Assembly: GCA_030704615.1 (NCBI GenBank)
Contig: CM060731.1
Coordinates: forward strand, 15,376,001-15,440,000
DNA length: 64,000 nucleotides
Source: Takakia lepidozioides
Lineage: Eukaryota; Plantae; Bryophyta
Direction of reading: 5' to 3'
The position numbers were made by a program, and so were the translations under genes. Within the stretch, counting starts at the first letter, position 1; each line of letters starts with the position of its first letter. The notes beneath the pieces were generated by a model, which saw nothing but the letters and a program-made list of their open reading frames with translations, did not search any database and was not told where the DNA came from. Shown here piece after piece: positions 10,106 to 58,022 of this stretch.

Positions 10106-10249
10106 CTGCAGACCTCACAACTGGTAAGACCTCTTGTTCTTACTACTTGCTTATGCTAGATAGTCACATTACCATCCTGAAAGCTTTGATGAATTAACAT
10201 GCAATCAGAAACACAGAGAGGGCATTTTTGCCTCATTCATGAAGTCAAG

Positions 10250-13050: not shown

Positions 13051-13619
13051 CTGGCCAAACATAGAAAGGCACATAAGCTAGATCCACAAACAGAAATCTG
13101 CAGAATAAAGGCAGACTAAAAGGAGAGGGATGCAGCATCATATCCACTACATCCTGTAACCTATCCCTAAGCTTCGAAAAAGTTAGCAGATTTGCGATGC
13201 TTTTCAGTACTTAATGAACTCGCATCCAATTCACTACTTGTCGTGCTAAAATTAGCTGCAATGGCAGCTTGGGAGAGAACCGCCTCGGGGAATTGAGCAC
13301 CGCTTGAAATATTTAAGCTCGTGAGATATTCACGTCAACGGAAAGATAACCAGAAATCTTGGAGATGTTTGCTTGCCGCCAAGTACAAAGACGGTTTACG
13401 TTGAAGAAAAGGTCAAACCTGACAATTTCGACAAGGTATATAATCTTTAAAGCAAGTAAAAGCTAGCGAGTTGCTACACATTCTTCGAATAAACGAAGCC
13501 TGTAAACGAAGCACCTACGAGGGCGGCACCTCAAATCAGTGAATGCCCTCGGTCCAGGGACGTACCCTATACATTTTTCCGTGTGTAGTTTTAGTACGGA
13601 CAAATCGTGGAAGAGTACC

Positions 13620-14770
13620 GTATGTTATATTTTTGGAGGAGTATGTTATATTTGGAGGAGTACGTTATATTTTTGGAGGAGTACGTTATATTTGGAGCAG
13701 TACGTTATATTTGGAGGAGTACGTTATATTTTTGGAGGAGTACGTTATATTTTTGGAGGAGTATGTTATATTTGGAGGAGTACGTTATATTTTTGGAGGA
13801 GTACGTTATATTTTTGGAGGAGTATGTTATATTTGGAGGAGTACGTTATATTTGGAGCAGTACGTTATATTTTTGGAGGAGTATGTTATATTTGGAGGAG
13901 TACGTTATATTTTTGGAGGAGTACGTTATATTTTTGGAGGAGTATGTTATATTTGGAGGAGTACGTTATATTTTTGGAGGAGTACGTTATATTTTTGGAG
14001 GAGTATGTTATATTTGGAGGAGTACGTTATATTTTTGGAGGAGTACGTTATATTTTTGGAGGAGTATGTTATATTTGGAGGCGTACGTTATATATTTGGA
14101 GGCGTACGTTATATTTTTGGAGGAGTATGTTATATTTGGAGGCGTACGTTATATATTTGGAGGAGTACGTTATATTTTTGGAGGAGTATGTTATATTTGG
14201 AGGCGTACGTTATATATTTGGAGGAGTACGTTATATTTTTGGAGGAGTATGTTATATTTGGAGGCGTACGTTATATATTTGGAGGGGTACGTTATATTTT
14301 TGGAGGAGTATGTTATATTTGGAGGCGTACGTTATATTTTTGGAGGAGTATGTTATATTTGGAGGCATACGTTATATATTTGGAGGGGTACGTTATATTT
14401 TTGGAGGAGTATGTTATATTTTTGGAGGAGTATGTTATATTTGGAGGCATACGTTATATATTTGGAGGAGTACGTTATATTTTTGGAGGAGTATGTTATA
14501 TTTGGAGGCGTACGTTATATATTTGGAGGGGTACGTTATATTTTTGGAGGAATATGTTATATTTGGAGGCGTACGTTATATATTTGGAGGGGTACGTTAT
14601 ATTTTTGGAGGAGTATGTTATATTTGGAGGCGTACGTTATATATTTGGAGGGGTACGTTATATTTTTGGAGGAGTATGTTATATTTGGAGGAGTACGTTA
14701 TATATTTGGAGGAGGACGTTATATTTTTGGAGGAGGACGTTCTATATTTGGAGGAGGACGTTATATTTGG
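13620..14770. repeat. Minisatellite, 19/21-bp unit ggaggagtacgttatat(tt)tt
   Basis: More than 50 tandem units. The variants ggaggc and ggaggg appear progressively along the array. Confidence 0.97.
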
Positions 14771-15329
14771 ATAACGTAGTTTCCCAATATAAGGTCATAA
14801 GTCATTACTTAGCTTGTTCCGCAAGCTTTGGTCGACGGATGAGACATGAGACTCTGTGGGGCAAACGCAGGTGTCGCGTGTCGCGCGACTTGAGGGAGAT
14901 AAGCGAATCTTGGTTCTTTGAACGGATGAGAATGTGGGTGGGATGAATGAGCGACATCGTCAATCACGGCAGACGTGGGGTCAAACCCTGGAGTCGGCGT
15001 GTAAATCCTTTGTTTGGGCGAACGGAGTGCAAGTGGTGCGGATGAATGACAATCGTTGGTCACAGTATCAAACCCTGGTGCTAGCAAACATTTCAGGTCG
15101 TTTGCATGAATGAATGGAGTGCAGATGATTCGGATGAATGCAGCAGTTGATCATGGCATCAAAACACCAGCAAGGTGGATGAATTAGGGGACAGATCATG
15201 GATGAACGGTGACACATCCATCCATTTAAGCCACCTGCACTTAGGGGATTGGAGGCTTGATAATTTGTTGTGTAATTGATAATTATAAATTATGGCTCTT
15301 TGACTAAAGGGAAGGAAAGGGGTAAAAAC

Positions 15330-17545: not shown

Positions 17546-18845
17546 AAATGGAGAGGTTGTTCATTGGCAATGTCATTTTGATATGGATGCTTATGTCTAT
17601 GAGCTTAGGGAATTGTATGATAGTCAAATCAAAGGCGAGACTTATTTTGGGAGAGAAGGAGCAGTCACTGGGATATCGATACTTGCCGGCACTTTGTCGA
17701 AAGAAGAGAAGGCCTCCACGCATGTGGTGGAAGGAGCCTAGACAACACGCACTGGGAGTTGATAGAAGCACAAGTTTGGCATATTACACCTGAGATCAGA
17801 GATATGAAATTTCTACGGAATTATATAATGACATTTGAGGCTTTCAACAATTTGGTTAATGAGCTTACGCCATTTGTTAAGTCCACTACTTTAAATCAAG
17901 TAAGACCATAACTAGAGATCCGAAAGATTGTAGCCGTTCTTCTCTATCGATTCGCACATGGTATTTCCCCAACCATAATGGCGGATTGATTCAATATTGG
18001 TGCGTCAACCATACACAAATATATTGACATAGTTTGTGTTGTTCTTACGACACCCGAGTGTCTCTTTAGCAAGTACCAATACACACCGACAGGAGAACGA
18101 TTAACATAAATTATCCATGTTTTCATGCAGACTACAGGGTTGCCTAACATCGTTGGTGCCATCGATGGAACCCATATTCCTTTTGCAGAAAAACCGAACA
18201 AGAGGGTCACCCTGGCGGCAGCAGATTTCTACAACCGCAAAAAAATCAATAGCTTCGTTTTGCAAACTGTGTGCAATGCAAAAAAGGTGTTTTGGAATGT
18301 TTGTGCTGGCAGCCAGCCTGGGGGTTGTGTGGATGGAGGTCAATTCAAGGTGTCACGGTTGTACAGAGATTTGAAAACTCGAACAATTCTACATGAACCT
18401 GTGGTTACAGTTCAGGGGATAAGAATCACACCATACTTGATTAATGATTCGGCTTATCCAATTCGAACATACTTGATGAGGAACTACAAGCCTCGAAACC
18501 CTGAAGAAATAGACAAGCGGCGTTTTGATTCTAGCATGAATAGTGGGAGAGTTGTCATTGAAAATGCATTTGCATCTTTGAAAAATCGTTGGCACATTTT
18601 GAAATGTTTGAATTCTAGGGTTGTTAGGGCAAGTGCAGTGACAATTGTTTGATGTGTCTAGCACAATTATTGTCAGATGTGGGGCATGCCTAAGCCAAGG
18701 AATGATGGAATTAGAGACAATTTGGCAGGTTTTGGTGGGAGCCAGATTGCTCATCCTAAGAGAAGGTGAAGCGACAAAAGTAGGAGGCGAGAGAATGAGA
18801 GAGAAACTGTACACACAATGGTTGATTGACAACCCACGTGAATAA
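17546..18845 (+). pseudogene. PIF/Harbinger DDE transposase (HARBI1-like), decayed
   Basis: IVGAIDGTHIP, YNRKKINSFVLQTVC, YLINDSAYP and RVVIENAFASLKNRW motifs in ORF 18125-18652. Flanking segments are broken by stops and frameshifts. Confidence 0.9.
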
Positions 18846-19039
18846 AATTGTTTGAATAGTAACTATGAATCTATAGAACAAATGTTAAACACACACAACT
18901 GGCATGAAATCATATTTAGATTCAATGCCCTCGGAGGGCATGTGCTAACTTTTTTTCATTACTCTGAATGGTGTGAAACAATACCACAGAGCTAGGAATC
19001 AAAGATACATTTCCAAAAATGTATTGCATACTGAAGCAA

Positions 19040-20260
19040 CATGCAATCACAAGATCCTACATGTCAAAATGTGATAGAAGGTCACATTTTCAAAGAAAAC
19101 AAAAGCTTCAAAATGGACCTCGGTTCTCTGGCCATAACTTCTTGTGATCTTATTCAATTGAGGTGAAACAAAATCTGAAAGCTGGAGAATCAAGGCACCT
19201 TTTCAATTTGATATTAAAATCTCACACAACATAAATCCACAACATTCTACAAGCCCAAATGTCAGAGGAGGTCACATTTTTAAGAGAAACCTAAGATCAT
19301 CAAGCTGGGCCTCGGTTTTATGGGCATAATTTCTTGTGGTCTTACTCAATTCAGGTGAAACAAAATCCCAAAGGTGGCGAAGCAAGTCAGATTTCCAAAA
19401 TAATATCACAAATCAATTCTTCATAAAATCCCAACATTTTACAAGTCCAAAGGTGAAGGCAGGTCACAACATGAAGAAAAACAAAATACTTCAAGATGGG
19501 CCTCGTTCTTCTGGGCATAACTTCGTGTGGTCTTACTCGATTGATGTGAAACAATATCCCACACCTGGAGAATCAAGCCAGCTTTTCAATGAGATATTTC
19601 ACTTACTTATCCTATAAAATCTAAACATTCTACAAGCGCAAATGTGAATGCATGTCACATTCTGAATGAAAACCATAGAACTTGAAGCTGCACCTCTATT
19701 TTTTGGGCATAACTTCTTGTGTTCTTACTTAATTGGAATGAAACAACAACAGACAGCTGCGGAATCTAGGTATCTTTCCAACAAGCCAACACATTCCCAT
19801 ATTGCATAAATTTTCTACATTGTGCAACCCCAAATGTGAATGTAGATCAAAGTATAAAGCAAAACAAAGTAATTGAAGCTGCACCCATATTTTTGGATAT
19901 AACTTCTTTAGATCTTACTCATTGGCATGAAATAATATCCCACAGCTGGGGAATCCATGTAGCTTTCCAAGAAGCCATCACATATCCTTGTAGCCTAAAT
20001 TCTCTACATGCTACAATCCCAAATGTCAAAGCAAGTCAAATTGTGAAGAAAAACAAAGTAGTTGAAGCTCATCCTCTATTTTTTGGGCATAATAAATTTT
20101 GTACTCACTCAATTGGCATAAAACAACAGCCTATAGCTGGGGAATCTAGGTAGCTTTCCAACAAGCCATCACACATCCTTGTAGCCTAAATTCTCTACAT
20201 GCTACAACCCCAAATGTCAAAGCATGTCACAATATGGAGAACCACAAAGTGCTTCAAGTT
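19040..20260. repeat. Tandem array, ~191-bp period, ~6 diverged copies
   Basis: Motif cctc..tgggcataacttcttgtg.tcttactcaattg at ~19118, 19310, 19501, 19693, 19884 and 20073. Confidence 0.85.
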
Positions 20261-20390
20261 CAATGTATTTTTTTTTTGTTCTAACTTCATGTCTGTGCTC
20301 ATTGTCACTAAACACACTCATGAGCCACAACAAACTAAGGGAATCAAGTGCTATCACCCACGGACGATGCGCCTGAGCCATCGTTTGGCT

Positions 20391-20946
20391 TTAACACATC
20401 TGCAAACAAACAGCCATCTGAAACTGGGTTTGCATTGCCAACTCGCGACTTGTTTGCTCGTTTTGAAGAATTTGCGAGCTGGTGATTCTCTCGGTCATCG
20501 CCATCTTTAGCGTCTCCATCTCTTTGATCCCCTCCCCAAATTCTTTGATGGCACTTGCAATGGCAGTAGATCCCCCAGAGAAACGTCGCTTCTTTGAATT
20601 TGGACGTCCTTGCACACCTGGCAATTTGCAAGCTGCCGTTCTAGGAGTGTAAGGCAGATCCTGCTGAATTGAAGATGCAAATCACTACAACATTTTTTTT
20701 GGGGGGGGGTGTGTTTAGCGACGCCCATAGCTACCCCGTGCCGTACGCGCCGACCCTTCAACATGGATTTTTGGAAATTTTGGGCTTTTTCACTCCTTTC
20801 TCTCTTGAGGACTCATCCGAAGTACAATCAACTGCATGAGTGGTTTCCTCTAAAATCACAAGTTGTTGATCTTGAAAACCTATCCATTGATTCATCGTCA
20901 ATGAGACCATCAAGTAGAGGTACTGCCATCCCAAGCCTAGCTTCAA
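20391..20946 (-). pseudogene. Probable C-terminal remnant of the Harbinger second (DNA-binding) ORF
   Basis: Convergent with the transposase. Reads NSKKRRFSGGSTAIASAIKEFGEGIKEMETLKMAMTERI (basic motif plus coiled coil). No Myb domain was seen. Confidence 0.5.
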
Positions 20947-20974
20947 TTAAACTTCAATTAGCTTCAATTCAACC

Positions 20975-21800
20975 CATCCGTCATGATGTCATTTCTGCAA
21001 GTTTCAAAGCCCATCTATGCTTGCTTGCTTTGAACTTTTTGTTAACTTGTCCAATTTAGATGTGCTATGGCATTATAGAATGCTAAACAACTACTATGAT
21101 GTACTATGAGGGCCTTTTGAGGGTCAAAAGTCTTGGCAGATTCTTAGATAGCACCCATTAGTCGTGATGTCATTTTTGCAAGTTTCAAACCCAACCCATG
21201 TTTGCTTGCTCTCAACGTTTTGTCAACTTGTCCAATTTGGGTGTGCTATGGCACTATAGAATGCTAACAAACATTATAACATAAATATGGGGGCCTTTCT
21301 GGCTTCAGATTTTCTTTTCAGAGTTTTAGATGGCCCCGATCAGAATGATGTCATTTCTACAAGTTTCGAGACCTTCTCCTACTTGAACACCTTCAACTTC
21401 TTCTCAGCTTGTCAGATTCAGGTGTGCCATGGCATTATAGAATGCTAACAAGTAGTATGATGTAGACATGAGGGACTTTCTTCAGATTTTTTTTTTCAAA
21501 GCTTTAGATGGCCTCCATCAAAACTGATGTCATTTTTGTGCATTTCAGGATGAAGGCAAGCATTACAATGTACGTATGAGGACCTTACGTGTTGTCATTT
21601 CTGCAAATTTTGGATCCTTCACTTACTTGAATACCTTCTACTTCTTCTCAACTTGTCCAGTTGAGGTGTGTTATGCATTATAAAAATTCAACAAGCAAAG
21701 TTATAATGTACACATGAGGACCTTTCGAGCTCCAGATGTTTTTTCTCAGTTTTAGATGGCCCCCCTTGGAACTGATGTCATTTCTGCAAGTTTTGGGGCA
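20975..21800. repeat. Tandem array, ~181-bp period, 4-5 diverged copies
   Basis: tgatgtcatttctgcaagttt-like motif at ~20983, 21165, 21346, 21525 and 21774. Confidence 0.8.
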
Positions 21801-21878
21801 TTCACCCAAGGTCTTAGAGGTGTACTGCTCATAAATATACTTGGAATTTTCTGGACTCCTTGTTTCATGTGTTCACCT

Positions 21879-22042
21879 TGTTGTGCGCATACATATCGCT
21901 ACACAACTACATCGCTGTCCAAAACCACACAACACATGTACACACCACACACTAGTATACCACTAGTCCACCACTAGTCCAACCACTAGGCTACAACTAG
22001 TCAGTCACTAGGCTGCCACTATGGCAGTCACTAGTCCACACA
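21879..22042 (-). repeat. Terminal repeat segment A (outer copy)
   Basis: Direct repeat of 22374-22549 with ~5 substitutions and a 12-bp indel. Confidence 0.95.
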
Positions 22043-22043
22043 A

Positions 22044-22549
22044 TGATAAAGAAAGAAGAATACAAGCACAATCTCATGCGAGCTCACAAAGCTGAAGCAT
22101 AAACTCATGCATATATAAACTCATCATTCAAATACAAGTCAAGCCAAGTGCACCCCACACCATGGGGAATCCACACTACGGCGCCATAGCTAGGCGCGGT
22201 GAGGCTCAACTCGAGAAAGATGAGCCTCCCGCGCTTGCCGTGAAGATAACCACTCCAGGGCCTAAATCTGCCTTGACCCCTGGATTGACACTTGGGCCAA
22301 TCCCAAATGTCAATATGTAAAAGCTAGCTATTTCTTAGCTAGTTTCATACTAGTGGTAAAATAACTTGACAGCTGTCGTGCGCATACATATTGCTACACA
22401 ACTACATCGCTGTCCAAAACCACAGAACACATGTGCACACCACACACTAGTATACCACTAGTCCACCACTAGTCCAACCACTAGGCTACAACTAGTCAGT
22501 CACTAGGCTGCCACTATAATGCTCACTACGGCAGTCACTAGTCCACACA
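22044..22549 (-). repeat. Complete canonical 3' LTR (A'-gc-B in sense), preceded by PPT
   Basis: The sense strand reads GGGGGGCGAT|TGTGTGG...GACAGCTGTC...TTTATCA. The purine tract is at 22551-22559. Confidence 0.8.
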
Positions 22550-22559
22550 ATCGCCCCCC

Positions 22560-25500
22560 GCACCATCTCCCAAAACAGACCCGACCTCAAGTCTCGTAAT
22601 CCATTGCCATGCCCGGCTGATGAATGCCCTTGGCAAGGCCAACCTGCCACTACCAGATCAATGGAGCCAACCCGCTCCAAATCCTGCGCCCCCAACAACG
22701 AAATGTTTGCTGGCAAGGCCTGCTGATATCCACGAACTGCAGCCACCGGCAACAACTCAGGGTACCGCTGTACCAACTGAGCAATATGACGAAGTGAAAC
22801 ACGTCGTGCAGTCTCATCCCTCTCCACATACAGGTAACGCCGAACTCGTACACCTGCCTGTAACACAACAGCCAATCTGGTGTTGATCCCGTCAAACAAG
22901 TCTAGAAGACAAATGCCTTCATCCGGATACTGCCACACAATAGATGTGGTGTCCAATGGAGACAACTGAGGTGGTCCTGGTGCAATCCCCGCACTCTCCT
23001 CCTCTCCTGATGGTACAAAAGCCTCCACCCAGGCTTGTTGCACCCGTCGATCAGCAACCCGCTGCAAATCCTTGCTCGTGCCCCACAATGGAGTCTGAGC
23101 AACCATGGCAGGCAACTCCGCCATATCATACATGTTATCATGTTCTCCTCGAGGTATGTCATCCTCTGAATGAGCATTTCCCTCAAGCAACTCTCCAGGC
23201 CAAGTTGCTAGTGTCGGCACCTTGCTCCGCCGGGCAACCGCAACACCTCCTATAAACGTCACAGGGAGCTGCACACGCCGGCCCTCCCCTGACTGCCATC
23301 CAGGCCTATAGGAAGCTGACTCCTCCCAAAAATCCAGGGTGAAGCCCATGGGGTACAACATTGCCCCACTAACCAGGACATCGTACGAGACCGCGTCTGA
23401 CACAATGGCCTTGGCTCGCATCACTAAGCCATCTGTAGAGTGATCCGGCCGTAGTCTGATAGCCAACTCACGCCGTGTCATGCCCCGAGCCTGCTCCGAT
23501 CCTCCCAGAGACGTCTGTATCTGGAAAGGACAAGGCTCCATATCCGCCTCTGTGAGGCCCAAGCCTGCAATAGCAGCTCTGCCCAGCATCAATGGCTGAG
23601 CTCCTGAGTCCAACAAGACCCGCAGTGGCCGGTACCTCTTGCCTGCCGGTCCACTCAAATAGAAAATGTCATCCTGGTTGTCTAACATGACAACTCCAGG
23701 TGTCACCATGGCGCACTCAATGGCTGGCCTAGCTGGCAGTTCCATCAACCTGGCAGCTGCAGCTTGCCATGGCGCCGTCGTGGTAGTCTTGACCCTCAAA
23801 TCTGAGGATCCCTCCGACAGTACACCTCCCACTATCTCCGCAGAAGATGAAGTAACCTCCCCACTCTCACAGAGTGTAGCTGCCAGCCTGAATACCTCAG
23901 CTGGTTTTACCCCCGGCGTCGCAATCATGGTAGCCGAGAACAATGGAGCCTGACACACAGATGTGGCCGCTCCTAGCAGCACACTAGCTGCCGTAGCCTT
24001 GGCAACACTAGGTAGTGGTGTTACCCGTGTAGCTCTCCCCAATGGTGTAGTAACCTCCGCCTTGGTAACAGTCGGGCGAGAACTAGGTGCCATGGATGGC
24101 GTCGACACTGTCTCCGCCAATGTGAATGACTGAGGGAGCCTAGCCCGACGGCTTACCTCCCCACACTGTGGATACAACTCCACCTCTGCACCTCGTGGCT
24201 CAGGAACTCGTGCTGCTCCTCGAGTCACGGCTGCAGCAGACTCCACCTGCACTAGTGGTAGTGCTGCTCCGCACATGAATCCCATGCCTCCCATATCTCC
24301 TCCCTCAGGAGCAGGAGGTGGACCATCCGGCCTTGGAGCCGGTACCACCTGAGCTGTAGCCATGGCAGCGAGCCTCTGCTCTAGCTGCTAAAGCCGGTTG
24401 GCCATGCCTTGGTCAACACCTTGACCTCCGCGTCTTTGGCCATGTTGAGCTTGCCCTTGGCCTATACCCCGTGCCTCGCCACCTCGTCCTCTTTGGGCTG
24501 CTCCCCCTCGCCCCCGGCCACCATTGTTCCCTTGGAACTGGCCTGGGCGCAACTCGGGATGCAAACCATAACACTGGGCCTCTCCATGCCCGTGCTTGCC
24601 ATAATGCCCACACTGCAACTGTGCAGGCTGTGCATGTGCCGGCCCTTTGCCTCCCTCTGGACAATCCTTCTTGACATGGGGTCCTCCACATGTCCAACAC
24701 ACCACATCCGCCCGTTGTTGGCTTGCAAATGAAGGGAGAGACCCCTGCATCTAAGGTCCTCTCTGCCCTTCCCTGAGCTTCACCTGAGCCCCCTTGTTGC
24801 CTTGAGCACGTTGAGGTAGTGGTTGGCTAGGAGCACCACTACCCCGTGGTGTCTCCTTAGCAAATCCCACCATGACCACTCGTTCCTCCACCATGTTGAG
24901 CTCTATTCGCTCTGCCAGCAAAAACACATTTGCTAAGGTGGGTTGGGCCGCTTGTAGGAGAGTTGCATCCCGCACCCTTCTCCTCAGCTCCTTGTCCAAT
25001 ATCCCATACCAGAATTGGACTGCCTGAGCTTCCGTAACCCCTTGGGTTACATTTATCAAGCACATCATGCGAGTGAAAGCCTCCCTCAAGCTCTCAGTAG
25101 GCTTCTGTTGGAACTCTTGCAAGCTCCGCAACTTCTCTGTCTTCACCCCTTGGTAGTTCCTTCTCAACTCTTCGAAGAACTCCACAACAGGGTTGAAGGC
25201 AGGCACGGGTACTGGTGCTGGTGCGGTAGTGGCTTGGGTGGACGTCGTAGCTACGGTACCACCAGTCCTACTAGTCCTACTAGTCCCACTGCTGCTTGTT
25301 GAAGCTGCCGGTGCAGCGGCAGGTGTAGCCACTGCCCTCGTGACTCTAGTGCCCCTAGTGATGGAGACATAGTCGGGTGACCAGTACATCCTCCACTCCT
25401 CGATCTCAACCTCATGCCCCCGCCTGAACTCATGGTAATCATCCATAGGCGGCCTCTCAAGGTGCTGAAACAGCCCCTTCCATGTCATGAAAGGCGTAAA

Positions 25501-25850
25501 TAGTTATGGATTGCGCATTTGCTGCAAATCACACCAACTATCAAACTCTCGGATAAAATCATCCAACTCGATGGTGCCCACCGCCCCAGAGTACCTTCGT
25601 GGCCCCTTGGTAGCTCGATACATCTCCTCCATTGTGTCATACAACAATGGCAAGGAAACAACTTGCACCGCCGGTATGAGTCATCCTGATTCACAATCCG
25701 AATCAGAACCTTCCGTAGAAGACACAGGTGGTGAAGGTGGCCTAAACCGCACACCTCGTCTCGTGTACCCACTAGTATCGCTAGTGCTCGAACCGGCACT
25801 GTCCCCAGCAACTAGTGGCACCTCCGTGTTGACACTCAACCGGTCATAAA
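22560..25850 (-). pseudogene. gag-zinc knuckle-aspartic protease-DNMT polyprotein, truncated
   Basis: ORFs 25488-24751, 24750-24388 and 24363-22492 share one frame, split by single stop codons. Gag: EKLRSLQEFQQKPTESLREAFTRM. Knuckles: CWTCGGPHVKKDC and CGHYGKHGHGEAQC. Protease: VLLDSGAQ (~23594-23619). MTase motif I LLDLFDGI (~22890-22915) and motif IV DLVVAGWPCQ (~22630-22659). The start is approximate. Confidence 0.9.
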
Positions 25851-26569: not shown

Positions 26570-27575
26570 CTCACTGGTCACAACCGTCACAGCCCCACAC
26601 AGGCCACAACCTATCACAGCCCTACACATGTCACAGGGTCACAGCCCCACAGGCCGCAGCCTGTCACAGCCCGTCACAGCCCCAAAGGCCACATGTCATA
26701 GCCTGTCAAAGCCCCCACGGCCACAGGTCACAGCCTGTCACAGCCCCACAGGCCACAGGGCACAGCCTATCCCAGCCCGCCACAGCCCCTCACAGCCCGT
26801 CACAGCCCCACAGGCCACATGGCATAGCCTGTCGCAGCCCTACACAGGTCACAGGGGTCACAGCCCCAAAGGCCACAGCCCGTCACAGCCCCACAGGCCA
26901 CAGAGCACATCCTGTCACACCCCCTCACAGCCCGTCACAGCCCCACAGGCCACATGGCACAGCCTGTCACAGCCCTACACAGGTCATAGGGGTCACAGCC
27001 CCTCATAGCCCGTCACAGCCCCACAGGCCACATGGCACAGCCTGTCACAGCCCCTCATAGTCCATCACAACGTGTCACAGCGTGTCACAACCCCACAGGC
27101 CACAGGGCACAGCCCACCACAGCCTGTCACAGCCCCACAGGCCACAAGGCACAGCCTGTCACAGCCTGTCACAGCCTATCACAGCCCGTCACAGCCCCAC
27201 AGGCCACAGGGCACAGCCTGTCACAGCCCGTCACAGCCCATCACAGCTCGCCACAGCCTGTCACAGCCCGTCATAGCCCCACAGGCCACAGGGCACAGCC
27301 TATCACAGCCCCTCATAGCCCGTCACAGCCCCACAGGCCACATGGCACAGGCTGTCACAGCCCCTCACAGCCCATCACAGCGTGTCACAGCCCGTCACAG
27401 CCCCCGCAGGCCACAAGGCACAGCCTGTCACAGCCCATCACAGCCCCACAGGCCACTGGGCACAGCCCGTCACAGCCCATCACAGCCCTACAGGGCACAG
27501 GGCACAGCCTGTCACAGCCCCTCATAGCCCATCACAGCCCCATAAGCCACAGGGCACATCCTGTCACAGCCCGCA
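26570..27575. repeat. ~1-kb minisatellite (gtcacagcc-based 10-11-mers) in the retroelement 5' leader
   Basis: Dense tandem cacagcc(c/t)gt and ccccacaggcca units. Confidence 0.95.
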
Positions 27576-28059
27576 ACAGACCACTCATGACAGTTTAGCC
27601 ATTTCTCCAAGGGGTTTAGCCACGCTAAGCTAGGGTTTGTGTCTCTTGGACTCTAGACTTCTTTGCACCGAGCTATGGCGGCTGTGAAGAAATCAGCAAG
27701 GTATTCTTGCTCTTTCGGCTCCCACACACCACCAATAGTAGCCCTAAGCCATGAGGAAGATGGTTGCCACAAACCAAGCCTTCTTTCTCACTTAGACTCC
27801 TCAAACACGCCACTAAATTCAATGGCAAACAACCAAGCTTGCTGGTTTCTAGCCCTTGTGAGCACTCATTCAAGCATTTCCCTTGGTCATAGCATCTGTT
27901 TTAGAGCCTATTCCAGCCCCCTACACCTGCCACTTCAAGAGCCATGCTCTATCTAGGCTTGAGGTTGAAACTCCAACTCATGACACGCTCTACAAGTGTC
28001 GGACTGTCACATAAGAGCAGATCAGCTCCTTACCTTCTCTTCTAGTTCTCTAAAGCTTG

Positions 28060-28420: not shown

Positions 28421-28949
28421 CAGCCCCCTATCTTGGCTCCTTAGCTCCTTGATGCTCTCTAAGACAAGACTAAGCACTCCACAGCCCTTGCCAAGCTCCT
28501 GAAACCCTAATGCTTACATTTCCAGCCACAAGACACTCATTTTGTGGTGTAAGAACTCTTCTTCCAAGCTCTGAAACCCTAGGTGCACATTCCATGGCCT
28601 TGCCGCACCTCTTAGCTCCTGTTCCAGCCCTGCTCATGCCATGACAAGAGCCCTCTTAATGCTGAAGCTCGAGATTGAAACCCAATCTCAACATACTCCA
28701 CAAAGTGCACTGATTTGCCCCAAGCCAAATCAGCCCTTTTGCTTGGTCTTGCAATCCTGCAGCATGGTGCTTTCATCTCTGAAGCTGAAGATCGAATGCC
28801 AAGGTCTACCACCTCGTAACCCACATCGCCTCCGCTTCTAACAACCAAGAGCTCCACGGTGCTCCTTGCATAACAACTTGGTTTCTCTCATTCTCAAGCA
28901 AAAACCACAAGTGCTACAACTAACTCGTATCTGGCACTCACAGATACGA

Positions 28950-28965
28950 GCTCATCTTTCTCGAG
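28950..28965 (-). promoter_or_regulatory. Putative self-priming primer-binding site
   Basis: Sense CTCGAGAAAGATGAGC directly follows the CA of repeat B'. It is complementary to 22210-22225 (16/16) and 29131-29146 (15/16), and lacks the TGG start of a tRNA PBS. Confidence 0.7.
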
Positions 28966-29292
28966 TGATAAAGAAAAAGAATACAAGCACAAGCTCATGC
29001 GAGCTCACAAAGCTGAAGCATAAACTCATGCATATATAAACTCATCACTCAAATACAAGTCAAGCCAAGTGCACCCCACGCCATGGGGAATCCACACTAC
29101 GGCGCCATAGCTAGGCGCGGTGAGGCTCAACTCGAGAAAGATAAGCCTCCCGCGCTTGCCGTGAAGATAACCACTCCAGGGCCTAAATCTGCCTTGACCC
29201 CTGGATTGACACTTGGGCCAATCCCAAATGTCAATATGTAAAAGCTAGCTATTTCCTAGCTAGTTTCACACTAGTGGTAAAATAACTTGACA
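28966..29292 (-). repeat. Terminal repeat segment B' (5' end of element)
   Basis: ~98% identical to 22044-22371 (about 7 differences, mostly transitions). Confidence 0.95.
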
Positions 29293-31036
29293 ACCTAAAT
29301 GGCAAGTCGTGGTGGGAAAGCAACCGACACATGTACGTAAGAGTTCATCACAATCAATTCGCAAGACTTGTCCATTGAGTTCCATCCCATATTATTGGGG
29401 TGCGCTTTATGGGGGTGCGCTACAAGCGCGTTGGCTCGTCGGCGAGGCTTGTCGCCCCATATATAGAAGTGCTACATAGGGCCCAACCTCAAAGGGGGTC
29501 ATTAGCCGTAAGACAAAATGACTCTTAGTTACGCCGGCTTTGATCGGAGTTTTTTTTTTTTTTTTTTCTCTAGAAGTGCTAATTGTACTTGGCCGTTTCT
29601 GTCCGTTTCCTCCCTTAAATGGTAGGCTGGTACATGAAAGGACCATTTTATACTACAATAAAACACAGACTAATTTGAGAGTATCTCTTGTTAGTTTTTT
29701 TTTTTTTTGAGTGAACAAGGGACAGAGCCCTGACTTCATTTTATTGAGTTTATTGCGGGGAAAAAAATTAAAACCCTTGGTTACGCCGTGAGGCCGACAC
29801 ACCATAGTCAGTGAAAGACGATTTAGTTCTAGATCTGGATGTTATGTACTTCATTACATTACAATATAATTATGTTAAACTAATTTATAATTATAATAGG
29901 GCAGGGCTCGCATGTATTCCATGCATTTGTTTTGACGATGATTTTCACAATGCTCGCACTCCTTCAAATAATTTTAATGTCAAGTCTTTTGCATTTTTTC
30001 TTCTTTATGGATCTTTTCCGTGGCTTCACCTCTTCAGTCTTCCTTTTGTTGCCACCGCCCTCCTGGCTCAGAAAGGAACAAAAGAGCGCCGAATTCGCAG
30101 CAGAATTAGAGGCTATTGGTGAATAAGCTATACCGTCGCTTTGTTTGGTTATGTTTTTTTTCTTAAAAAACAAAAGGTAACGGCGCCCCTGTTAATCAAA
30201 TTAAAAACAAGGAATTAATAACCTTGGGAGTGTCGACGATGAAGCACCCATGCAAGATCAATTTCCTTCTTGGATATATTTTCGACGCACCACAAGCTTA
30301 TTTGTGTGGTGATGACAAAACGAAAGATACTAGATACTTATTCCTAAGACGCTCATTCATGGTTGGATTGTGTAAACAGTCCTTCTGTCTGTGCAATCTG
30401 TGACTCATTTTCTTGCTTTGTTTACGGATTGTCTGCAGACACCCACTATCACTCATCCACAATTTCTTAGTGGGGCTGAAGCGCATGTTGCCTAACGGAT
30501 GTTGAAGACATGCTGGTTGGATGTTTGCTTATGTAGAAGAGAGACTAGGCATCATGTTACAAGTCAACGGAGAAACAAAATGTGGTCAAAGGACCTTACA
30601 CCGTGTCAAGGCACTGATTGCTATGCTCACCGCCCCCTTATGTTTTGTCATCATGAGAGCCCATTGCCGTTTGAGGCTTGTTTTAGACTAGAAAAACTGA
30701 AAATGTTGCTCCTAAGTTTGGAAGGGGTTGGAGCGAGAAGATGATCAGCAGTGCAATCTCTGGGGTTGTCTAATTGCTCAGTCGACATGTAAGAGAGTTT
30801 GATCACAGTGTAGGTTCACCACGACTGTCCACCTCCCAAGATATTGGGAGAGAAAGGTAGGAAGGGGGAAGTGTGACGAAGAGAGAGAAAGAGAGAGAGA
30901 GATAGAGAGACTCTGGATATGTTCAAAGAGAGTCATCATCTTCTTCGTCTTGTTGATCACATTGAGACTTTTCTGTGAAGAGTTGGCGTTCTGATCTTCG
31001 TGCCTGGTAGGTGCCTTGTCCTTAATGCCCTAGATC

Positions 31037-34000
31037 ATGGTAGGAATGAAGGCGCGAAGCAGTTCTCAAGTTCCGGGTTGCTCGCCCTTGTCGATCTTCG
31101 CAGGCATTGCACTCGTCCTCGTTACATATGCGTGTAAGTGGTGCTTATCATGCAATTGCCTGGATGTTGTTTGGAAAGATCCTGCGTTGCAACTGTGGAT
31201 CCATTATCTCTTTGCAGGTAGCTGCCCCTTTAGTTGCTTCTCCATACAAATGTGGCGGTTTGCAGGATTTTTTGAGGGTACCTAGTTTAGTTCCAGACCA
31301 AATGAGGACTGTTGATGAGGATTTGGAAGTGAATCTCTGTTTATACTGGCAGGCACGCGGCTACTTGGTGAGGGTCCAGGGGTGCCTTGCGACAATCAGG
31401 AACAGAGCTACGAGGGCCCGCTGCTCCAAAGGAGTGGGCTCTTCAAGTATTATGGGAGCCTAGCCGGTGTGTTTGGGCATTGGACCAAGGGATGGCCACA
31501 GCGAGGTTACGGAACCCATCTCTCACTCCAAATTTATGTGTACGAGGTGGATGAGATTGACGGTCTGAAAGAGCTTCTTGGTGGCCGTGACCACACCATC
31601 AACTTCACGTCTTGTGTGAAGGGGCAGTGGGGAACTCAGGTCCGTCTTTTCTCCCATTTTTGTCTGCTGTGCCCAAGCAAATTGTAGCTTTCAACCCGGA
31701 TCTCGCCTTCAAGGATTTGTGAATGTTTCCTGGACCAGCACTGAGAACTTTCTGGCTCTGCCTAGATACAAGTTAGGCGAGTGATAAACTAGATCCCTTT
31801 CAGCTCAAGACACAAAATTCACATACATCTGGTGTTGTAAATCCACCTCCCTCCCTCTAACCAGGTTCATTTTCCTCTCTTAGTTTTGTGCATCTCTTTC
31901 CGCCTTTGTTCTTTCTGGACTGTCTCTAGCTAGCTGCCCATCTGTGTATTTCTCTGATTCTTCTTTCACACAGAATTTTCTTTGGTTTCTCTCTCTTTTT
32001 CCTCCACGTCATGTCTGGTCTCTGGCTCTAGTTTTCTCTCTGAGGTTTCATGAATTTCCACAATATCCTATAGATTGTACTCATAAGACGTTGTTTGCCG
32101 TAGCCTTGTGGCCATTGACCCCGCGCCCAGTTTGAGCGGGAACAAAAGGGACAGAACCTACCTCTGTCAGGGGCTGACGTTGGTAGTGTGACTTACCATC
32201 ATATATAGAATTAATCCAGGTTTTCCAGATATCCTCTAGAAATCCCTTCACACAAGCATCAATCTGCTGTGTGTGATTTGCCTAAAAACTAGGCCTCAGG
32301 AGGGCCTGGGCTTTTGGCTCAGCCTCGAGACTTTCAAAATTGTTAAACAGGGGAACAGGCACAATTCCCTTGATAGAGTTGAAGAGAGCGTCTCTTTGGT
32401 GAGAGAACCCCGGACAGTGTATCAGAAAGTGAATACTGTCTTCAGATTGCCCACACAGCGGGCAATTGCACTCTCCCTTTCCTCTCTGCTTCTGTTTGCT
32501 GTTCAAAGGTAGGCTTCCTGCCCTGAGTTTAAATTTCAGTCTAGTGCCGAGAGTGGGTAGACCCTTGAGGTCATCCAAGATGTCCTCCCCCATGTCACTG
32601 ACTGGAAACAAGTTCAGGGAAGTTTTCTGCCTAACTTCATTTTCATCAGACAATCTCATGGCAACAGACATGGCTGAGGACACTACAGCCTCTAAGTCAG
32701 ATTTACCCAGCAGGGTCAAGGCTTGCGGATCCAGGTCCAGGTCCTTGAGAATCTCTTCTACTCTCTTCTGCCAGGACTTAGCCTGTTTGACAGGGCGGTC
32801 CTTTTTCCAAGATATAGAGTCGATTAACTTAGGATATCTGGTGTTGGGCATATGTTGCAGCTGACCCCACCATCTGACCTTGAATTCATCTCGTCGGGAG
32901 CTTAAGGACGGAATGCCAAACTCACCCCGAACAGCCACATTGGCTGTTTTGGAGCATGCTGACATACACGCCTTAAGCACCCCCACTTGAATGGATTCTA
33001 GAGACTTAGCCTGGTTGGAGTTATCAACCCATATAGCAGATCCGTACTCCAAGGCAGGTCTAATAACGCGACAAAGCATGGTTTTCTTAACCTCAGAGTT
33101 GACCCCTCTGCAGTGGAAAAATTTAGTGAGCCCCAGAGCTTTGCCCTTGCCAGTTTGAACAACTTTCCGGATGTGCATCCCAATTACAATTGGAGGAAAA
33201 CTCAACGGCCAGGTAAGTGTAGGAAGGGAGGACCGGGATCTCTTGGCTACCCCACTGCCACTTAAGATCACTTCCTCCCTCTCCTCTGTCGTTGAATGCT
33301 ACCACTGCACATTTGCTGACATTAGCCTCTAGCCCCCAAAGATCAAAGTATCTCTTCGCGCAATCAATCAACTCCTGGAGATTGGTTGGAGTCTCCCCTA
33401 TGCCTGCAAAGTCATCCGCAAACATAAGGGCTGGTATGGTGGTATCACCCACCCTTAACCCAAATCCCTCACTTTCCACATCCTCGAGGAGTTGATTGAT
33501 GAAAACATTGAAGAGCAGAGGGGAGAGAGTACATCCTTGAGCTACACCTTGGTCTATGTCAAAGAAGTTGGACTTCTGTCCGTTAACAGTGACACAGCTT
33601 TTGGTGTGAGCATACAAGTTGTGGACAACTCTCCACATCTTTCCCTTGATCCCACAAGACCAGAGGCGGAACCATAGGCCATCTCTCCACACTGTGTCAT
33701 AAGCCTTTTTGACATCCAGGAAAAAAACATAAGTGGGTTTCCCTTCTTTTTTCCTTCCCTGGATAATCTGGCTTAGAGTGAAGATATGATCCACACAGCC
33801 CCTGTTTCGCCGAAAGCCAGCTTGGCCTTCGTGGAAACAACCTCTAGACTCCAGATCAACCTCGAGACGAGTACTTATAACTCTGCAGAATGTCTTGCCA
33901 ACAGCATTGAGGAGCGTGATGCCACGGTAGTTCCCCGGTTCTTCTCTGTCACCCTTCTTGTATAGATTGACAAAGAGAAAGAGCAAGTGGACTTGGTTTG

Positions 34001-34554
34001 TCATAGTTTTGTTTCAGCAGACTTTGGATAAAGACTTTTTCATGGTTGGGACGGTGGGATGCCATGGGAGAGCAGGCTAAAATCTACAATTTATTTCTGG
34101 AGTCAAGCTTTCGCACCCTGGATAAGGAAAAGGCAGACTTCTTTTTTGTGCCCTCGTACGTGAAATGTGTACGGATGAAGGGAGGCCTCACTGACTCTGA
34201 GATCAGTGACACATATTTGAAGGTGAGCTTGAAAATGCTGTTTGCTTGGTTGCACACCATTGGACTGCACACAGTCAGAGAGAAATGTACTCATAAGGCG
34301 TTGTTTTCCATCAAGAATGTACTCATGAGATGTTGTTTACTTTAGCCTTGTGGCCATAGAGGCTCCCAGTTTGGTGGAAGAACAGGGAACAGACACTCAC
34401 TTTGTGAGGGGCTCACTCCAGTAGTGCGGCTTACCCTGGTATAAACAATTGGTTTGGGAGTTGCTCTAGAAAGCTCTTCATCAATCTGCTGTGTGTGAGC
34501 TGCAGAGCAATTACATCCTTAGACATGTTTGCTAGAGAGAGAGATGTACTCATA

Positions 34555-34586
<32 letters not shown>

Positions 34587-37500
34587 CTCATAAGACGTTG
34601 TTTGCCGTAGCCTTGTGGCCATTGACCCCGCGCCCAGTTTGAGCGGGAAAGAGAGAGAGAGAGAGAGAGAGTTAAGTACTGGAAAACCAGGCTTACTTGC
34701 TGCATGAAGAGCAATCGCCTCGTATATGTAGGCTACCAAGCATTTCCGGGCTTCAAATGTGATGTCTCTGCCACGGATTGTCAATTTTTGAAGAGCCAGT
34801 AGTATCTTTCTTGAATATCATAATATGCAGAGACACAGAGAAAGCATAAGTGGGGAGGGCGCTGCATGGGGTTTGGCAAGCCCTTAACTCTAGCATAGTT
34901 TGGTGTAAGCTCCTAGATGGGTGGAAGTGGTTATGGTATCACTGAGGGAGGTCATGGCACATGACATTTTGATACAGGTGGTAAAGCAACTGCCTTATTT
35001 CCGGCGCTCTGGAGGGCGGGATCATATATTTGTCTTCCCGAGGTATCATCCTGCTTAGTTTCACTATGGGCGATAAATCTTTCTTGTCCACCTGTCCAAT
35101 ATGGCCAAGATTATGATCAGTACGGTGTAATAAGTCTAATATATTTTTTTTCTCTGTCCTCCTCAGAAGACTACAGTGAGCATATGAGTACATCTCTCTT
35201 GCTCTCCTCCTGCATACAAATTGAAATTGTGGAATGCCTGAGCAGCTTGGTGGCAGGATTTTAGAGAGAGATAGTAATACTATTAACGCTGTAGAAAACA
35301 TGGTTACTTGTCTCAGTAGTAACTTTGTTTTCTCCAAATTTGTGTCTGAGCTGCAGCCTTGATGGTTGATGGATGGTCGGCATGCAGTGGAGCTGGAGCT
35401 CATTTGGTCAAGGACTGGGCTCTCTACCTTAACCGTTCCATATTCCTCACTCCTGAGGTACAGTCACACTTTTGCGCTGCTCTTCCAAATTAGCCATGTG
35501 AGGCAAGAGACAAATTCAAACCCAGACTTGAACCCAGAATGAATATGGTGAAGCGATAGCTAAATCAAAACTATTTGATTAGGTAGGAGATTTGAAGATG
35601 AGGTAAGAGATTTGACTGATTTGAAGTTTCGACTTACAATTGTGGAGCAGGGAGATCGGACAGACAAGCGGAGTAGCAGCGCATTCAACACATGGAAGGA
35701 TGTTCTCATCCCTGGTAATGTTGACAATGGCATACCTTTTGCAGCATCCATGGTGAACTCAGTTATTAGGCCTATGCCTTTGGGAAAGCGAAAGTTTGTA
35801 GCCAACTTTCTGGGCCGAGCACAGAGCAAACATGGTCGACTCCAGCTTATTGAGCTTGCCAAGCAGTTTCCTGATGAGGTCTGCTCTTTCTCTCACTTAC
35901 TCTGCTAATAACCACCTCCAACACCTGTTCAGGTCCCAAAAGTGGTGTTGTCCATGTATACACGGTCTATTTTGTCCATTGGAGGTTGCATTTTGTATTG
36001 TATGGAATTTAAAGGAGGAGGTTGTTTTTACAGTAAAGAGAGAGGTTACGTGTCCCGATGAGGCCTGCAGCATTGTTTTTTGACATCAATGGAAGCCCCT
36101 TATTGTAGCCATTCTGCCTTTATAGTGACACACATGACTTTCAGAGACCATTAAGCAGATTTCGTCTGTGTGTTTGCATTGCGGTGCAGTTGGAAGCTCC
36201 TGTGTTGGAGTTTCGAGGGCCTGCAAAACTGGATCATAAGGAGTATTGGACACACATGCGGAATGCCAAGTTCTGTTTAGCTCCTCGTGGGGAATCCTCA
36301 TGGACTCTCCGCTTCTACGAGGCTTTCTTTGTGGTTAGTACAAATATTCCAAGCAAGAGAGTTGAGAGTAAACCCTATTTGTGTGTTGCTCCATCCCTGG
36401 GACTAGAAGGAAGAAGAAGGAAGACTCTTGCCGAAGCACTTATGGTGTCATTTCACCCCGAAGGGCTTCTGTTTGGAAGGTGGACACCTTCTAACGGCCG
36501 TAACCGGGGCAACGCAGTTGCCCAACCCTCCCCCAAGGACTTGAAAGTCCCCAGGTACCCACACATTAGTAACCGGTTGACCCAGGTATCCCCTTTCTAT
36601 GGCTGGGTTGACCATAGAACACCGTACAGGAGAAAACTAGTACCTTGGGCCATTTGGCGTCGGCTGGTGTGCACTATTTTCTGGGGCCAATCATGTACCA
36701 CCATGCATCTTTTGCAAGTTGTTACCCACTACGTGCTACCACATGTCCAAAGTGGGCTTCAGAACCGACCATTCCTCTTCTATAATGTGTGCTACTATAC
36801 AAACGAAATCTCGAGACTCTGGAAGTCTCCAAGGCCTTGTGAGCGAATGGCTGACAAGTAGCAGGGCATGAGGATGTTAACCCCCATGTTGAGGAAGTCA
36901 TTCTTGTGGCACAGAGTTTTGGGGTGAGCTGGTGTATTGGGCCTGTGTGTATCACATTGATCATTTGAGGTTCCGGTCTGATCAGCCTCGGACAATATGT
37001 TTGGTACATCCGCTGATCTGGTCTTCACTCCTCCAGGTCCTCTCAAGGCCTATGTGAAGCGAAGCCTTCTGGCTGATCTAGCAGGCCTCGCAGAGCTGTC
37101 CAATACCTATGATACAAGTCGATTGTGATGCACCAATTTGAAAAATCATACCTCTTATCTCTATGTATTCTGGTGCATGAACAGGAGTGTGTACCGGTGA
37201 TATTATCAGATGAAATAGAGTTACCGTTCCAGAATGTGCTGGACTACAGCGAGTTCTCCATAAAATGGCCCACTTCTCGTATTGATGAAGACCTTCTGCA
37301 ATATTTGCGCTCGATCCCTGGTACTCTCGCTCTCTCTACACATGCATGGGCTAATCCAATTCACTTTTTTGTCTCCATAATTACTCATTCTTCTGAGACT
37401 TTTACTGGATTTTGCAACAACAGCTACATGTCTGACATCTATGTAGAGGTAGAGAGCTACATTGTCAGTCATATAATGAATATTAGAACTCCGTGATTTT

Positions 37501-41001: not shown

Positions 41002-43810
41002 TAGGTACGAAAGACTGCATGATGTTGGGAATGGGAAGTTCCATGTATGGAAGCCTGAAGGTAACATGTAGGCATCTGCGAGCAGAAAAGACAAGGACAG
41101 GAAGTACTCACTCTGTACCTTGGTGTACAAAAGCCTGAGACTTCTATCAATGTGTCTATCTTCGTACCTCCAATGCAGTTTCGCTCAAAGCTTATGCTTG
41201 CCACTGGTTTTCGTTCTTTTTCCAACCAAATTGTCCTATCTTTTTTCCTGTGTAAGAAGTGATAGCAGCACGAGCACCAGGCTGGCAATAGGGAGCCTGC
41301 AATTATCCTTCAACTCATGAGCCGTGTCCATCAAGTTTGGTCAGATAGAAGTTCCAATCAGGAGTGGAACACGTACCCTTGTTGATAAGAGGCAAGATCT
41401 ATGCAGAAACGACTCCAGGCAAAATCTGCCCACCATAGCTATGATTCCTGGACCAGAAGAAGTAGCAATAGTGGATCTATAAATGGAATGTATCCGAGAT
41501 TCCCTTTGAGAGATGGACATCTTCTACGGAATTTTCTCGCCCAATTCCAGCTTTAGAGAGTTGGAAGACGTTGGGGCCTTGTTGGGTTTTCCTTGGCTTA
41601 AAAGAATATGTGCCTACACTATGAGATTCGTGGGTGAATGTCATCTTGAGCACCTCCCAGGCCCTCCCATGCCATGATGGCTGCAAAGGAACACCAAGTG
41701 AGCCTTATCGGTGGACCTACCTACCCCTGATAATGCAAACTAAAGGGAGGTTGGCCCTGTCGGTCTGCACTAAAAGCTGAACACTCAGTAGCAGGTACTC
41801 AGGCACCCCCTTCGATGCAACGAGGTACCTAGTCTTACCTCCAGCTTTTGGATTTTTCGACTAGGCTAAGCTAAATCAGAGCGAGTTTTCTATCCAAGAT
41901 CCTTTGCATCATTGAGTTCTCAACACAAACAAGCTACCGAGAAACCTCTCTGTGCGCCTGGAAAAGCTAATCTGAGATTTAGAGTATGGAGTTAGCTAAC
42001 TAGACTAGGAATAATGAATTAGCATCCCATGAGCAAAATTCTGGGAGTTGACTTGGAATCATATACCAACAATTAGCTTGAAACACGGTGGAGGTGGTGA
42101 AGTAGAGCCTGGATTGTCGCCCCGCCATACCTACGCCGCGGCCCACCCACCTTTTCTGCTAAACTTTGCTCATTAGTCGGAAGTTTACCCGGCCCGTCCT
42201 TGGCCATGTTTAGGAAGACTCTTATCAAATCCCCCTTCGGTGGTGGTGACGACGACAATGACATGTACACAGTGTGTGGGGCCCTGGATTCTAGCCTACC
42301 TCCAGATTCCCATGCTTTAAATAATGCTTCTAAACTGTATTGGGATGCACCAACTCTTGTCACTCAGCTTGCTGATTTCTTCTCCTGGGTGGCCTAGTGA
42401 TTGTTGACTAGAAGTCTCGCTAGAACTGATAAGTTTCAGGGCCCATTAAGCTTTTGCATGGGGGACCCACCAACCTGGCCTGCCCGAATGGCAACTGGCC
42501 TTGCAATCAGTCGAGAATGCACATGCTGGGTTTCAAAGTGGAACCGTTCTAATTGGGTAAGTTTATGATACCCTTAAAGTAGGGCAAATCACAGATACCA
42601 CGTCTCAGTCACACTTGTAGGCTATAGATTCTGTTTTTCTTTCCTAACAAGCTCAGCATTAGACATGGATACAAGTTGGTCAACGTTGTCTGACAATATC
42701 GATCTGCTTCTCTCAGATAACCAGAGAATTTGGTCGTTCCCAGCTGAAGACCCACCAAGTATCATCTGATACTTGATTTGCTATCACAACAGCGAACTTA
42801 TGCATGGAAAGATGCGGAGAAGTTTAAGTGGGGACGAGGTGGGGACACTAAAACTGGGTGATGTTGATTCGGCAACAACTTTGGGGTTGGCGTTGTTATT
42901 AGCCATCAGTCTTCTGATCTGTCCAACAATGCATACCCAACGAATAACACAGCAAAGGGCCCCCTTTGCCGTTGCAGACCCACAAGCGAGGAAGAGAGAC
43001 AGGTGGCGGTGATGGGGCAGTCAGTTAGGTGGTCGTCTAGGCAGCGGCGGTCCAGAAACAGAGTAATTTAAGCACAGACAGAGAGGGTCAAGAGGCTCGA
43101 AGGGAGGGAGAAACTTTTGCGATTACGGGTCAACACACACATTACAATATCTCAGATAACCCACCTGGCCCTGGGTGGGCGGGGGGCATGCTTTTTGCGC
43201 TGAGCTGAGGACCAGAGAGAAGGGATATGGCGGTGTGTGAGCCGTCGGCGTTCTCGCTGTGAAATCTTTGGAAGGAAAGCTATGTTTCAATGAAGGTCTC
43301 TACTTCCTTCCTTCTTGGTCCCGTCTTGGTTCAAGATTGGCGGTCTGCACTCTCAGTGTTCTTGATTGTGATTACATGCCTGCATTGAAGTCCGAATAGA
43401 GTCGGTCCAATTTCGACCTTCTCCAGATGATCGGTTCCGTATAACTGCCGAGCGTTCTTGGAAGAGTGCTTATCTGTATCGATCGGTGCCAAGTTCTTGA
43501 TAGAGGGATGAGCAAGGGGATCAAAGGGTTACAAGCAGGGAAGGACGGAGTTTCATCTCCCAAAGATTCGTCCGGTAGATTGGAATGATGACGCGATTCT
43601 CTACCTCGAATCCAACCAAACTGTCTCAATTACGACGTGTCACAGTCTCATCTACAGTACATCGTCCCGAGAGCGGTTTTTTCCGGGGATTTCTCGAGCA
43701 TACATAGAGTATGGACGTCGTTGAAGTAGTCATGACATGAGTTAGTCTGCAAGAGGATGCTCTTTTACCCCGCATGATTGAGGACCAGCTCGGAGGTGGC
43801 CGGAGCTGAA

Positions 43811-57677: not shown

Positions 57678-57717
57678 CGCGTAAACACTAGATAAATCAG
57701 ACAAGCTACAAACGTTC

Positions 57718-58022
57718 TCGACACGAAGAGAGAGAAAGAGCTAGCAAGAAACTAAAATGCACTCCACTGGGTCAGCAAGAAGAACCACACTATTTCTACA
57801 GAAAATTGCAAGGTCCGATGCTGGAGGAAGCTGCAAACTGCAAACAAGCTTGTAGATTTCTGAGGATTTCGACACGAAGAGAGAGAAAGAGCTAGCAAGA
57901 AACTAAAATGCACTCCACTGGGGCAGCAAGAAGAACCCCACTATATCTACAGAAAATTGCAAGGTCCGATGCTGGAGGAAGTTGCAAACTGCAAACAAGC
58001 TTGAAAATTTCTGAGGATTTCG
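57718..58022. repeat. ~151-bp tandem duplication just upstream of the EXORDIUM start
   Basis: tcgacacgaagagagagaaagagctagcaagaaactaaaatgcactccactggg begins at 57718 and 57869. Confidence 0.93.

Follow-up and report, generated by a model that had tools for sequence, protein, structure and literature searches.

KnitGypsy-Dnmt3 of Klebsormidium nitens, as described by de Mendoza 2018 (PMC5890265), combines gypsy domains with a C5 methyltransferase in its polyprotein and with DIRS-like repeats, and the parts of that paper examined here describe no primer-binding site (PBS), polypurine tract (PPT), target duplication or replication route for it. A streptophyte Gypsy-DNMT3 is also mentioned in a 2026 preprint. 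Self-priming has been described for Tf1, in which the 5' end of the RNA pairs with the PBS (PMC4600332; bioRxiv 2022.12.06.519325), and has been predicted for plant Tcn1 and TAR copia elements (PMC6317226). Split repeats are found in Ngaro/PAT elements, which are laid out as A1-ORFs-B1A2B2 (PMC8547959, PMC7192593), and Chlamydomonas carries two gypsy elements that depart from the usual plan: Gypsy-7a_cRei, with a PHD finger and subdivided LTRs (PMC9940879), and REM1, another unusual one (PMC2774666). The integrase of foamy virus, for its part, cuts the palindromic LTR-LTR junctions of 2-LTR circles (PMC1180852). Our literature search found no paper on the priming or integration of split-repeat gypsy elements, on which subscription journals, Repbase reports and supplements may hold more.

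Here, we compare with these systems an element in a 64,000-nucleotide stretch of the genome of Takakia lepidozioides (contig CM060731.1, positions 15,376,001 to 15,440,000), which we call the window. The element's repeats suggest a self-priming gypsy lineage with an unusual order of its terminal sequences, and we use a second, related family to weigh how it may prime and how it may integrate.

Layout and coding content of the window element

The window element derives from a Ty3/gypsy retrotransposon by internal deletion and retains gag, a protease and a truncated C5 DNA methyltransferase. We name its repeats A and B; A is the repeat that an initial annotation of this DNA had called B, and our B is a further repeat. 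The features of the element are as follows:

29292-21879, minus strand: whole element, layout A1-internal-B1-A2-B2
29293..29296, minus: 5' target-site duplication AGGT, read from the sequence
28966..29292, minus: repeat A1 (5' copy), TG...CA, putatively part of U3 plus R plus U5
29115..29155, minus: hairpin across the putative transcription start; its upstream arm, if transcribed, would hide the primer
29131..29146, minus: predicted self-primer and putative RNA 5' end, 15/16 plus G:U to the PBS
28950..28965, minus: PBS, directly 3' of the A1 CA; the homologous site covaries in the second family
28924..28950, minus: 10-bp hairpin following the PBS, with no conservation in the second family
26580..27590, minus: tandem-repeat array found by repeat analysis, in a long 5' leader
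24388..25632, minus: gag with zinc-knuckle-like motifs, interrupted by stop codons
22492..24387, minus: ORF with an aspartic-protease motif (LLDSG) and the first portion of a C5 DNA methyltransferase, truncated near 22559
22551..22559, minus: PPT remnant G6CGA, directly upstream of B1
22374..22550, minus: repeat B1, putatively the 5' part of the LTR U3
22368..22377, no strand assigned: palindrome GACAGCTGTC at the B1/A2 joint (CA-GC-TG), putative integrase site
22044..22371, minus: repeat A2 (3' copy), with a 16/16 primer-like copy at 22210-22225 inside the hairpin 22194-22234
21879..22043, minus: repeat B2, ending ACA; at the A2/B2 joint the PBS-side end is joined to the PPT-side end
21875..21878, minus: 3' target-site duplication AGGT, the same 4 nt as on the 5' side

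A1 and A2 are 97.9% identical, with 7 differences between them, and both run from TG to CA. A plain LTR element with A alone as its LTR was ruled out, given that the target duplication flanks A1 and B2 and that the PPT stands before B1. The window copy lacks reverse transcriptase (RT), RNase H and integrase. In contigs built from public runs, the depth of the element is thousands of times that of its flank and loose ends occur at the deletion break, where other copies continue, so that we regard the locus as a deleted copy of an abundant family.

The C5 methyltransferase sits within the gypsy polyprotein, between the protease and the RT, and is cut short in the window copy. The order RT-RNase H-integrase, with an integrase of the rve type, is seen in relatives only, and in full-length ones this integrase takes up the interval from RNase H to the PPT. 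Named homologues with RT, RNase H, rve integrase and a PHD finger come from Marchantia, Calypogeia, Riccia, Sphagnum, Klebsormidium, Closterium, Haematococcus and Volvox, the nearest being those of liverworts and Sphagnum. None of the seven proteins scanned gave a chromodomain hit, and four of the seven carry the PHD finger. The window protein is 31% identical to its Marchantia relative over 594 aa, and its protease-methyltransferase part shares 30% identity with a K. nitens PR-DNMT-RT-RH-INT protein (E 1e-26). For RT-RH, which the window copy does not have, pairwise identities to K. nitens proteins are 46-55%. The element appears to fit best in the Gypsy-Dnmt3 group, as a relative of KnitGypsy-Dnmt3. 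Scans of prokaryote genomes and viral contigs found no related element, only weak methyltransferase matches (L081-L097) that we did not use. In one protein derived from a eukaryote transcript (P0026), the domain order is different, with the methyltransferase after RNase H and before integrase-PHD.

Further repeats and genes lie elsewhere in the window. An RT of non-LTR type lies in two frames on the minus strand at 32072-34660, flanked by repeats that are scattered through the window, and short repeats related to these recur at 6838, 10822, 12017, 38109 and 63815. Long inverted and direct repeats of up to 525 nt (97%) are nested at 5428-12127, a 61-bp tandem array runs from 13506 to 14946, a DDE_Tnp_4 transposase fragment lies at 18110-18652, and tandem units of 181 and 192 bp occupy 19039-21675. 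Land-plant genes are represented by GT47 (a weak match, 36109-36861), PMR5N (43778-44743), Phi_1 (56658-57740) and EF1-gamma (61836-62465).

Pairing between the primer-binding site and repeat A

The initial annotation had proposed that the element primes without a tRNA, by pairing of its PBS with a hairpin loop in its own LTR, and the complementarity on which it relied is borne out. The 16 nt directly after the A1 CA (28965-28950) have their complement at 22210-22225 in A2 (16/16) and at 29131-29146 in A1 (15/16), with no further site anywhere in the window at up to 3 mismatches. The mismatched position in A1, which is one C-to-T change, can still form G:U, and the pairing extends over 16 nt by Watson-Crick rules or 17 with G:U pairs. 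At its 3' end the complementary stretch directly meets the A1 CA, the geometry that had been pointed out as right for a primer, and both of the hairpins named earlier exist, one at 29115-29155 with its counterpart at 22194-22234 and one at 28924-28950, which shares one base with the PBS. A chance origin of the pairing was rejected: by composition, the expectation for such an anchored match is 1e-7, and among 2000 dinucleotide shuffles of A2 the best anchored run was 9 nt, exceeded by none. Rfam gave no match at 28700-29400.

The second family was gathered by gag alignment from metagenome contigs, using the best 80 of 90 confirmed loci. We took the 41 of these 80 that hold A1 and downstream sequence, leaving aside L053, L074 and L023, with partial A, and the loci that lack A; removal of 2 exact duplicates, of 7 further records of insertions already counted and of 1 copy without the primer region left 31 independent copies. 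The best 11-nt complement of the PBS falls at the homologous site in 21 of the 31, and 18 of 31 pair at no fewer than 10 of the 11 positions, G:U counted. In the 10 misses, the primer is deleted (5 copies), the PBS is altered (3) or another site scores best (2). The three best-preserved copies pair at 14 of 14 positions, 8 of which are changed on both sides relative to the window. This fits the covariation between PBS and LTR that the initial annotation had suggested looking for, pairing being kept while both partners change, although with only two families compared the 8 changed pairs could stem from a handful of events, and one indel could cover several of them.

Both families end the paired stretch in GAG before TTGAGCC and begin the PBS with CTC directly after CA. 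Their A repeats can be aligned only in short blocks, one of which lies at the 3' end of the primer. One cross-family control is unclean, since 10 of the 11 nt with which the window PBS begins find a match near the 3' end of the second-family A (L002, ~320-330), with 8/11 in the reverse comparison. The PBS is kept in a subfamily (L009, L029, L077) where the sequence behind it has been replaced. As a separate observation, deletions cluster in the hairpin that covers the primer, marking it as a hotspot, and several distinct ones occur in the A1 of L005, L007, L012, L018, L031, L043, L066 and L070.

TATA spacing and RNA folding bear on which copy of A would prime. TATAAA is present in 12 of the 31 second-family copies and missing from 19, and of the 9 copies where its distance from the 11-nt paired core is measurable, 8 have it 31 nt ahead of that core; plant promoters typically place the TATA box ~30 nt from the start. 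No TATA box stands at the corresponding place in the window copy. When folding of the window RNA begins at successive positions 10 to 22 nt ahead of the primer 3' end, the PBS duplex forms with P 0.93-0.97, and once 23 nt or more upstream of that end are included, a local hairpin forms and P drops below 0.1. Folding from 29146 yields the PBS duplex and flanking stems in a multi-stem structure (z -7.5), and folding from the start of A, a repeat rich in hairpins (z -9.7), loses the duplex. Second-family RNA folded from the primer start gives P of 0.89, 0.88, 0.88 and 0.95 in the four copies folded, and with a 40-nt start the duplex survives in three of them, so that a hairpin switch is not general. 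In these predicted folds the switch is clear in the window family and seen in only one of four copies of the second.

We consider it likely that the element primes in the manner of Tf1, with the 5' end of its own RNA, which is predicted to start at the primer. Of the original proposal, independence from tRNA is supported, the PBS beginning with CTC rather than TGG and its pairing being kept through two-sided changes, whereas pairing within a hairpin loop and priming from the 3' copy are disfavoured because the local hairpin is predicted to outcompete the duplex.

Three other readings of the pairing have to be set against self-priming by the RNA 5' end. The pairing could be real and yet have a structural role, at the RNA or the DNA level, in packaging, strand transfer or the joining of ends, comparable to that of the internal complementary region in DIRS elements, with priming elsewhere. 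The repeat layout, which is that of Ngaro/PAT (PMC8547959), and the many hairpins of repeat A would suit such a role, which we nevertheless think unlikely, in that the paired stretch has its 3' end exactly at the CA in both families, no other PBS candidate was found, and the standard PPT and rve integrase of full-length relatives lead one to expect a standard PBS at the usual place. It is more improbable still that the RNA ends or is cut in A2 at 22210 and folds its 3' end back onto the PBS. The perfect 16/16 match does belong to A2, but the A1 difference is one C-to-T among the 7 between the copies, as expected from ageing after insertion. Transcripts of A2, moreover, take in the upstream arm, and in them the local hairpin (-29.5 kcal/mol) is predicted to be more stable than the duplex (-27.1), hiding the primer stretch; the TATAAA spacing of the second family indicates an RNA start, not an end. 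Priming by a host tRNA, through its 3' end or a half molecule, or by another host RNA, would make the LTR match a by-product. Half-tRNA priming exists in plant copia lineages (PMC6317226), but the site here starts with CTC instead of TGG and differs at 8 of 14 positions between the families, each time tracking its own LTR, and we regard this origin as very improbable.

Split repeats and the route of integration

Among the best 80 of 90 loci, the A-B-A-B layout is complete in L005, L012 and L036 and partial in others, with the 3' half in L067 and L072 and B-A up to the contig end in L003. A PPT precedes the first B in 15 of 18 second-family copies; with the PPT before B1 and the PBS after A, B plus A has the marks of one ordinary LTR. 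Insertions begin at A and end at B, and the 4-bp target duplication matches at 4/4 positions in 8 of 11 loci and at 3/4 in the other 3. At the B1/A2 joint, a 2-nt spacer separates CA from TG in all 7 joints, which are palindromic apart from decay. These two spacer nucleotides of CA-NN-TG are missing at the inserted ends, and loss of 2 terminal nt is the usual result of processing by integrase. In L005, L036 and L072 the spacer is AT instead of GC and still palindromic, which may reflect double deamination of a methylated CHG.

The A/B joint, in both families, fuses the PBS-side end to the PPT-side end. It is clean in 5 of 7 cases, the window included, and carries extra letters in L005 and in L021, a rearranged copy with a PBS remnant. 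Across four elements compared for A and five for B, element-specific variants are common to A1 and A2 in 8 columns and to B1 and B2 in 4, with 0 position-specific columns, and the distance between A repeats is 0.07-0.08 within an element as against 0.10-0.11 between elements (4 elements). Such sharing of variants up to the joint is what one would expect if both copies were remade from one template. Ends that derive from an internal palindrome, together with an A2/B2 joint that resembles joined cDNA ends, would imply, on the simplest reading, integration from end-joined or circular cDNA, and on these sequence patterns we put that route at close to, if slightly under, an even chance. For retroviruses, end-joined circles are usually dead ends.

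Combined with self-priming by the RNA 5' end, this route would run as follows:

(i) Transcription would start at or just before 29146.

(ii) The first 11-16 nt of the RNA would fold onto the PBS and then be cut off, as in Tf1, where the primer is released by RNase H.

(iii) Strong-stop DNA would jump from A1 to A2, and the hairpin over the primer would keep this 3' copy from pairing.

(iv) The plus strand would start at the tract before B1, yielding a linear B-A-internal-B-A cDNA.

(v) The cDNA ends would be joined and the integrase would cut the internal CA-NN-TG palindrome, giving A-internal-B-A-B.

A symmetric circle should also give the mirror product A-B-A-internal(-B), which occurs at 0 of 30 independent 5' ends, with no B before A1 in 35 of 35 listed, and some asymmetry therefore remains unexplained. 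One speculative thought is that, of the two identical sites, both of which contain CHG on each strand, one might be protected by the element's methyltransferase. The same absence of mirror products favours an account of the layout in which no ligated circle takes part and A-B-A-B is passed on through RNA running into B2, or through run-on of the reverse transcriptase across cDNA ends; the clean junctions at five of the seven A/B joints, that of the window among them, point the same way. Against this account stand the element-specific variants that A1/A2 and B1/B2 share up to the joint, the make-up of the joint from a PBS-defined and a PPT-defined end in both families, with extra letters in two of seven (L005 and the rearranged L021), and the fact that the ends would still require internal cutting at CA-NN-TG. 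We see in it a real possibility, while leaning against it.

Single-B forms (A-internal-B) make up 8 of the 11 loci examined for duplications. L009 and L072 represent the same insertion site, yet one has B and the other B-A-B, which means that recombination or assembly can make single-B forms and that these lend no support to double cutting.

Several loci are rearranged in other ways. In L030 (8472-8710) and L059 (6342-6580), A1 is replaced by an inverted 3' end of the element (3' UTR, PPT and B), joined a few bases before the PBS, which could be a product of autointegration or template switching. L021 (15040-15940; also L062) has inverted pieces of A and gag followed by the end of A, 10 nt of PBS, 4 filler bases and B, with an intact 4-bp duplication. 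L013 and L032 are one insertion, in which an internal deletion joins RT to the start of B, without the PPT.

Relation to known systems

With Tf1/sushi, Tcn1 and TAR, the window element has in common a PBS that follows the LTR CA, its complementarity to a stretch of the element's own 5' LTR, and a predicted multi-stem fold. It differs from Tf1/sushi and Tcn1 in its split and permuted LTR, in its methyltransferase and in relatives with a PHD finger and no chromodomain after the integrase; the duplex is 16 nt long here and 11-14 nt in the second family. Of the Tf1 pretzel, the central duplex and the LTR-end stem are predicted for the window element, whereas the third duplex, between the sequence behind the PBS and the LTR, is not seen, this sequence folding on itself. 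The two full flanking LTRs of Tf1/sushi have no counterpart either, the 35 listed 5' ends (30 of them independent) being without a B before A1. Membership in Tf1/sushi or Tcn1 was accordingly rejected, despite the probable Tf1-like priming, for want of a chromodomain and of paired flanking LTRs.

Ngaro/PAT elements, retrotransposons of the DIRS order that use a tyrosine recombinase, resemble the window element in their split direct repeats, which stand in the same A1-ORFs-B1A2B2 order. They differ from it in that its relatives have an rve integrase, a protease, a PPT, a PBS and 4-bp target duplications, and assignment to Ngaro/PAT was rejected on the integrase, the PPT and the target duplication. 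The likeness to foamy virus is that an integrase would act on a palindrome and free processed ends. In foamy virus that palindrome is formed where the cDNA ends meet, whereas in the window element it lies inside the LTR, so that cutting it would permute the element.

Drawing these comparisons together, we tentatively propose, at somewhat less than an even chance, a gypsy clade of the green lineage that would prime with its own RNA, make an ordinary two-LTR cDNA and integrate only after its ends are joined. A cut at the palindrome inside the LTR would then permute every insertion, and the likeness to the DIRS layout would be convergent. To the elements known for self-priming, Tf1/sushi, Tcn1 and TAR, the window element would add a lineage without a chromodomain, directly supported by paired changes. 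If circles are the integration substrate, the element would bear, as a natural example, on the long-standing question of whether two-LTR circles integrate, with circles as a required intermediate. Tools that expect two flanking LTRs would misread elements of this kind, and in its host the family seems to be very abundant.

The layout further lends itself to a testable explanation of DIRS-like split repeats in an integrase-bearing gypsy element, which in the text examined on Klebsormidium are noted without a mechanism. It is to KnitGypsy-Dnmt3 that the window element bears the double likeness of a methyltransferase within a gypsy polyprotein and of DIRS-like repeats, and the two differ in their hosts, KnitGypsy-Dnmt3 belonging to Klebsormidium and the window copy to a land plant.
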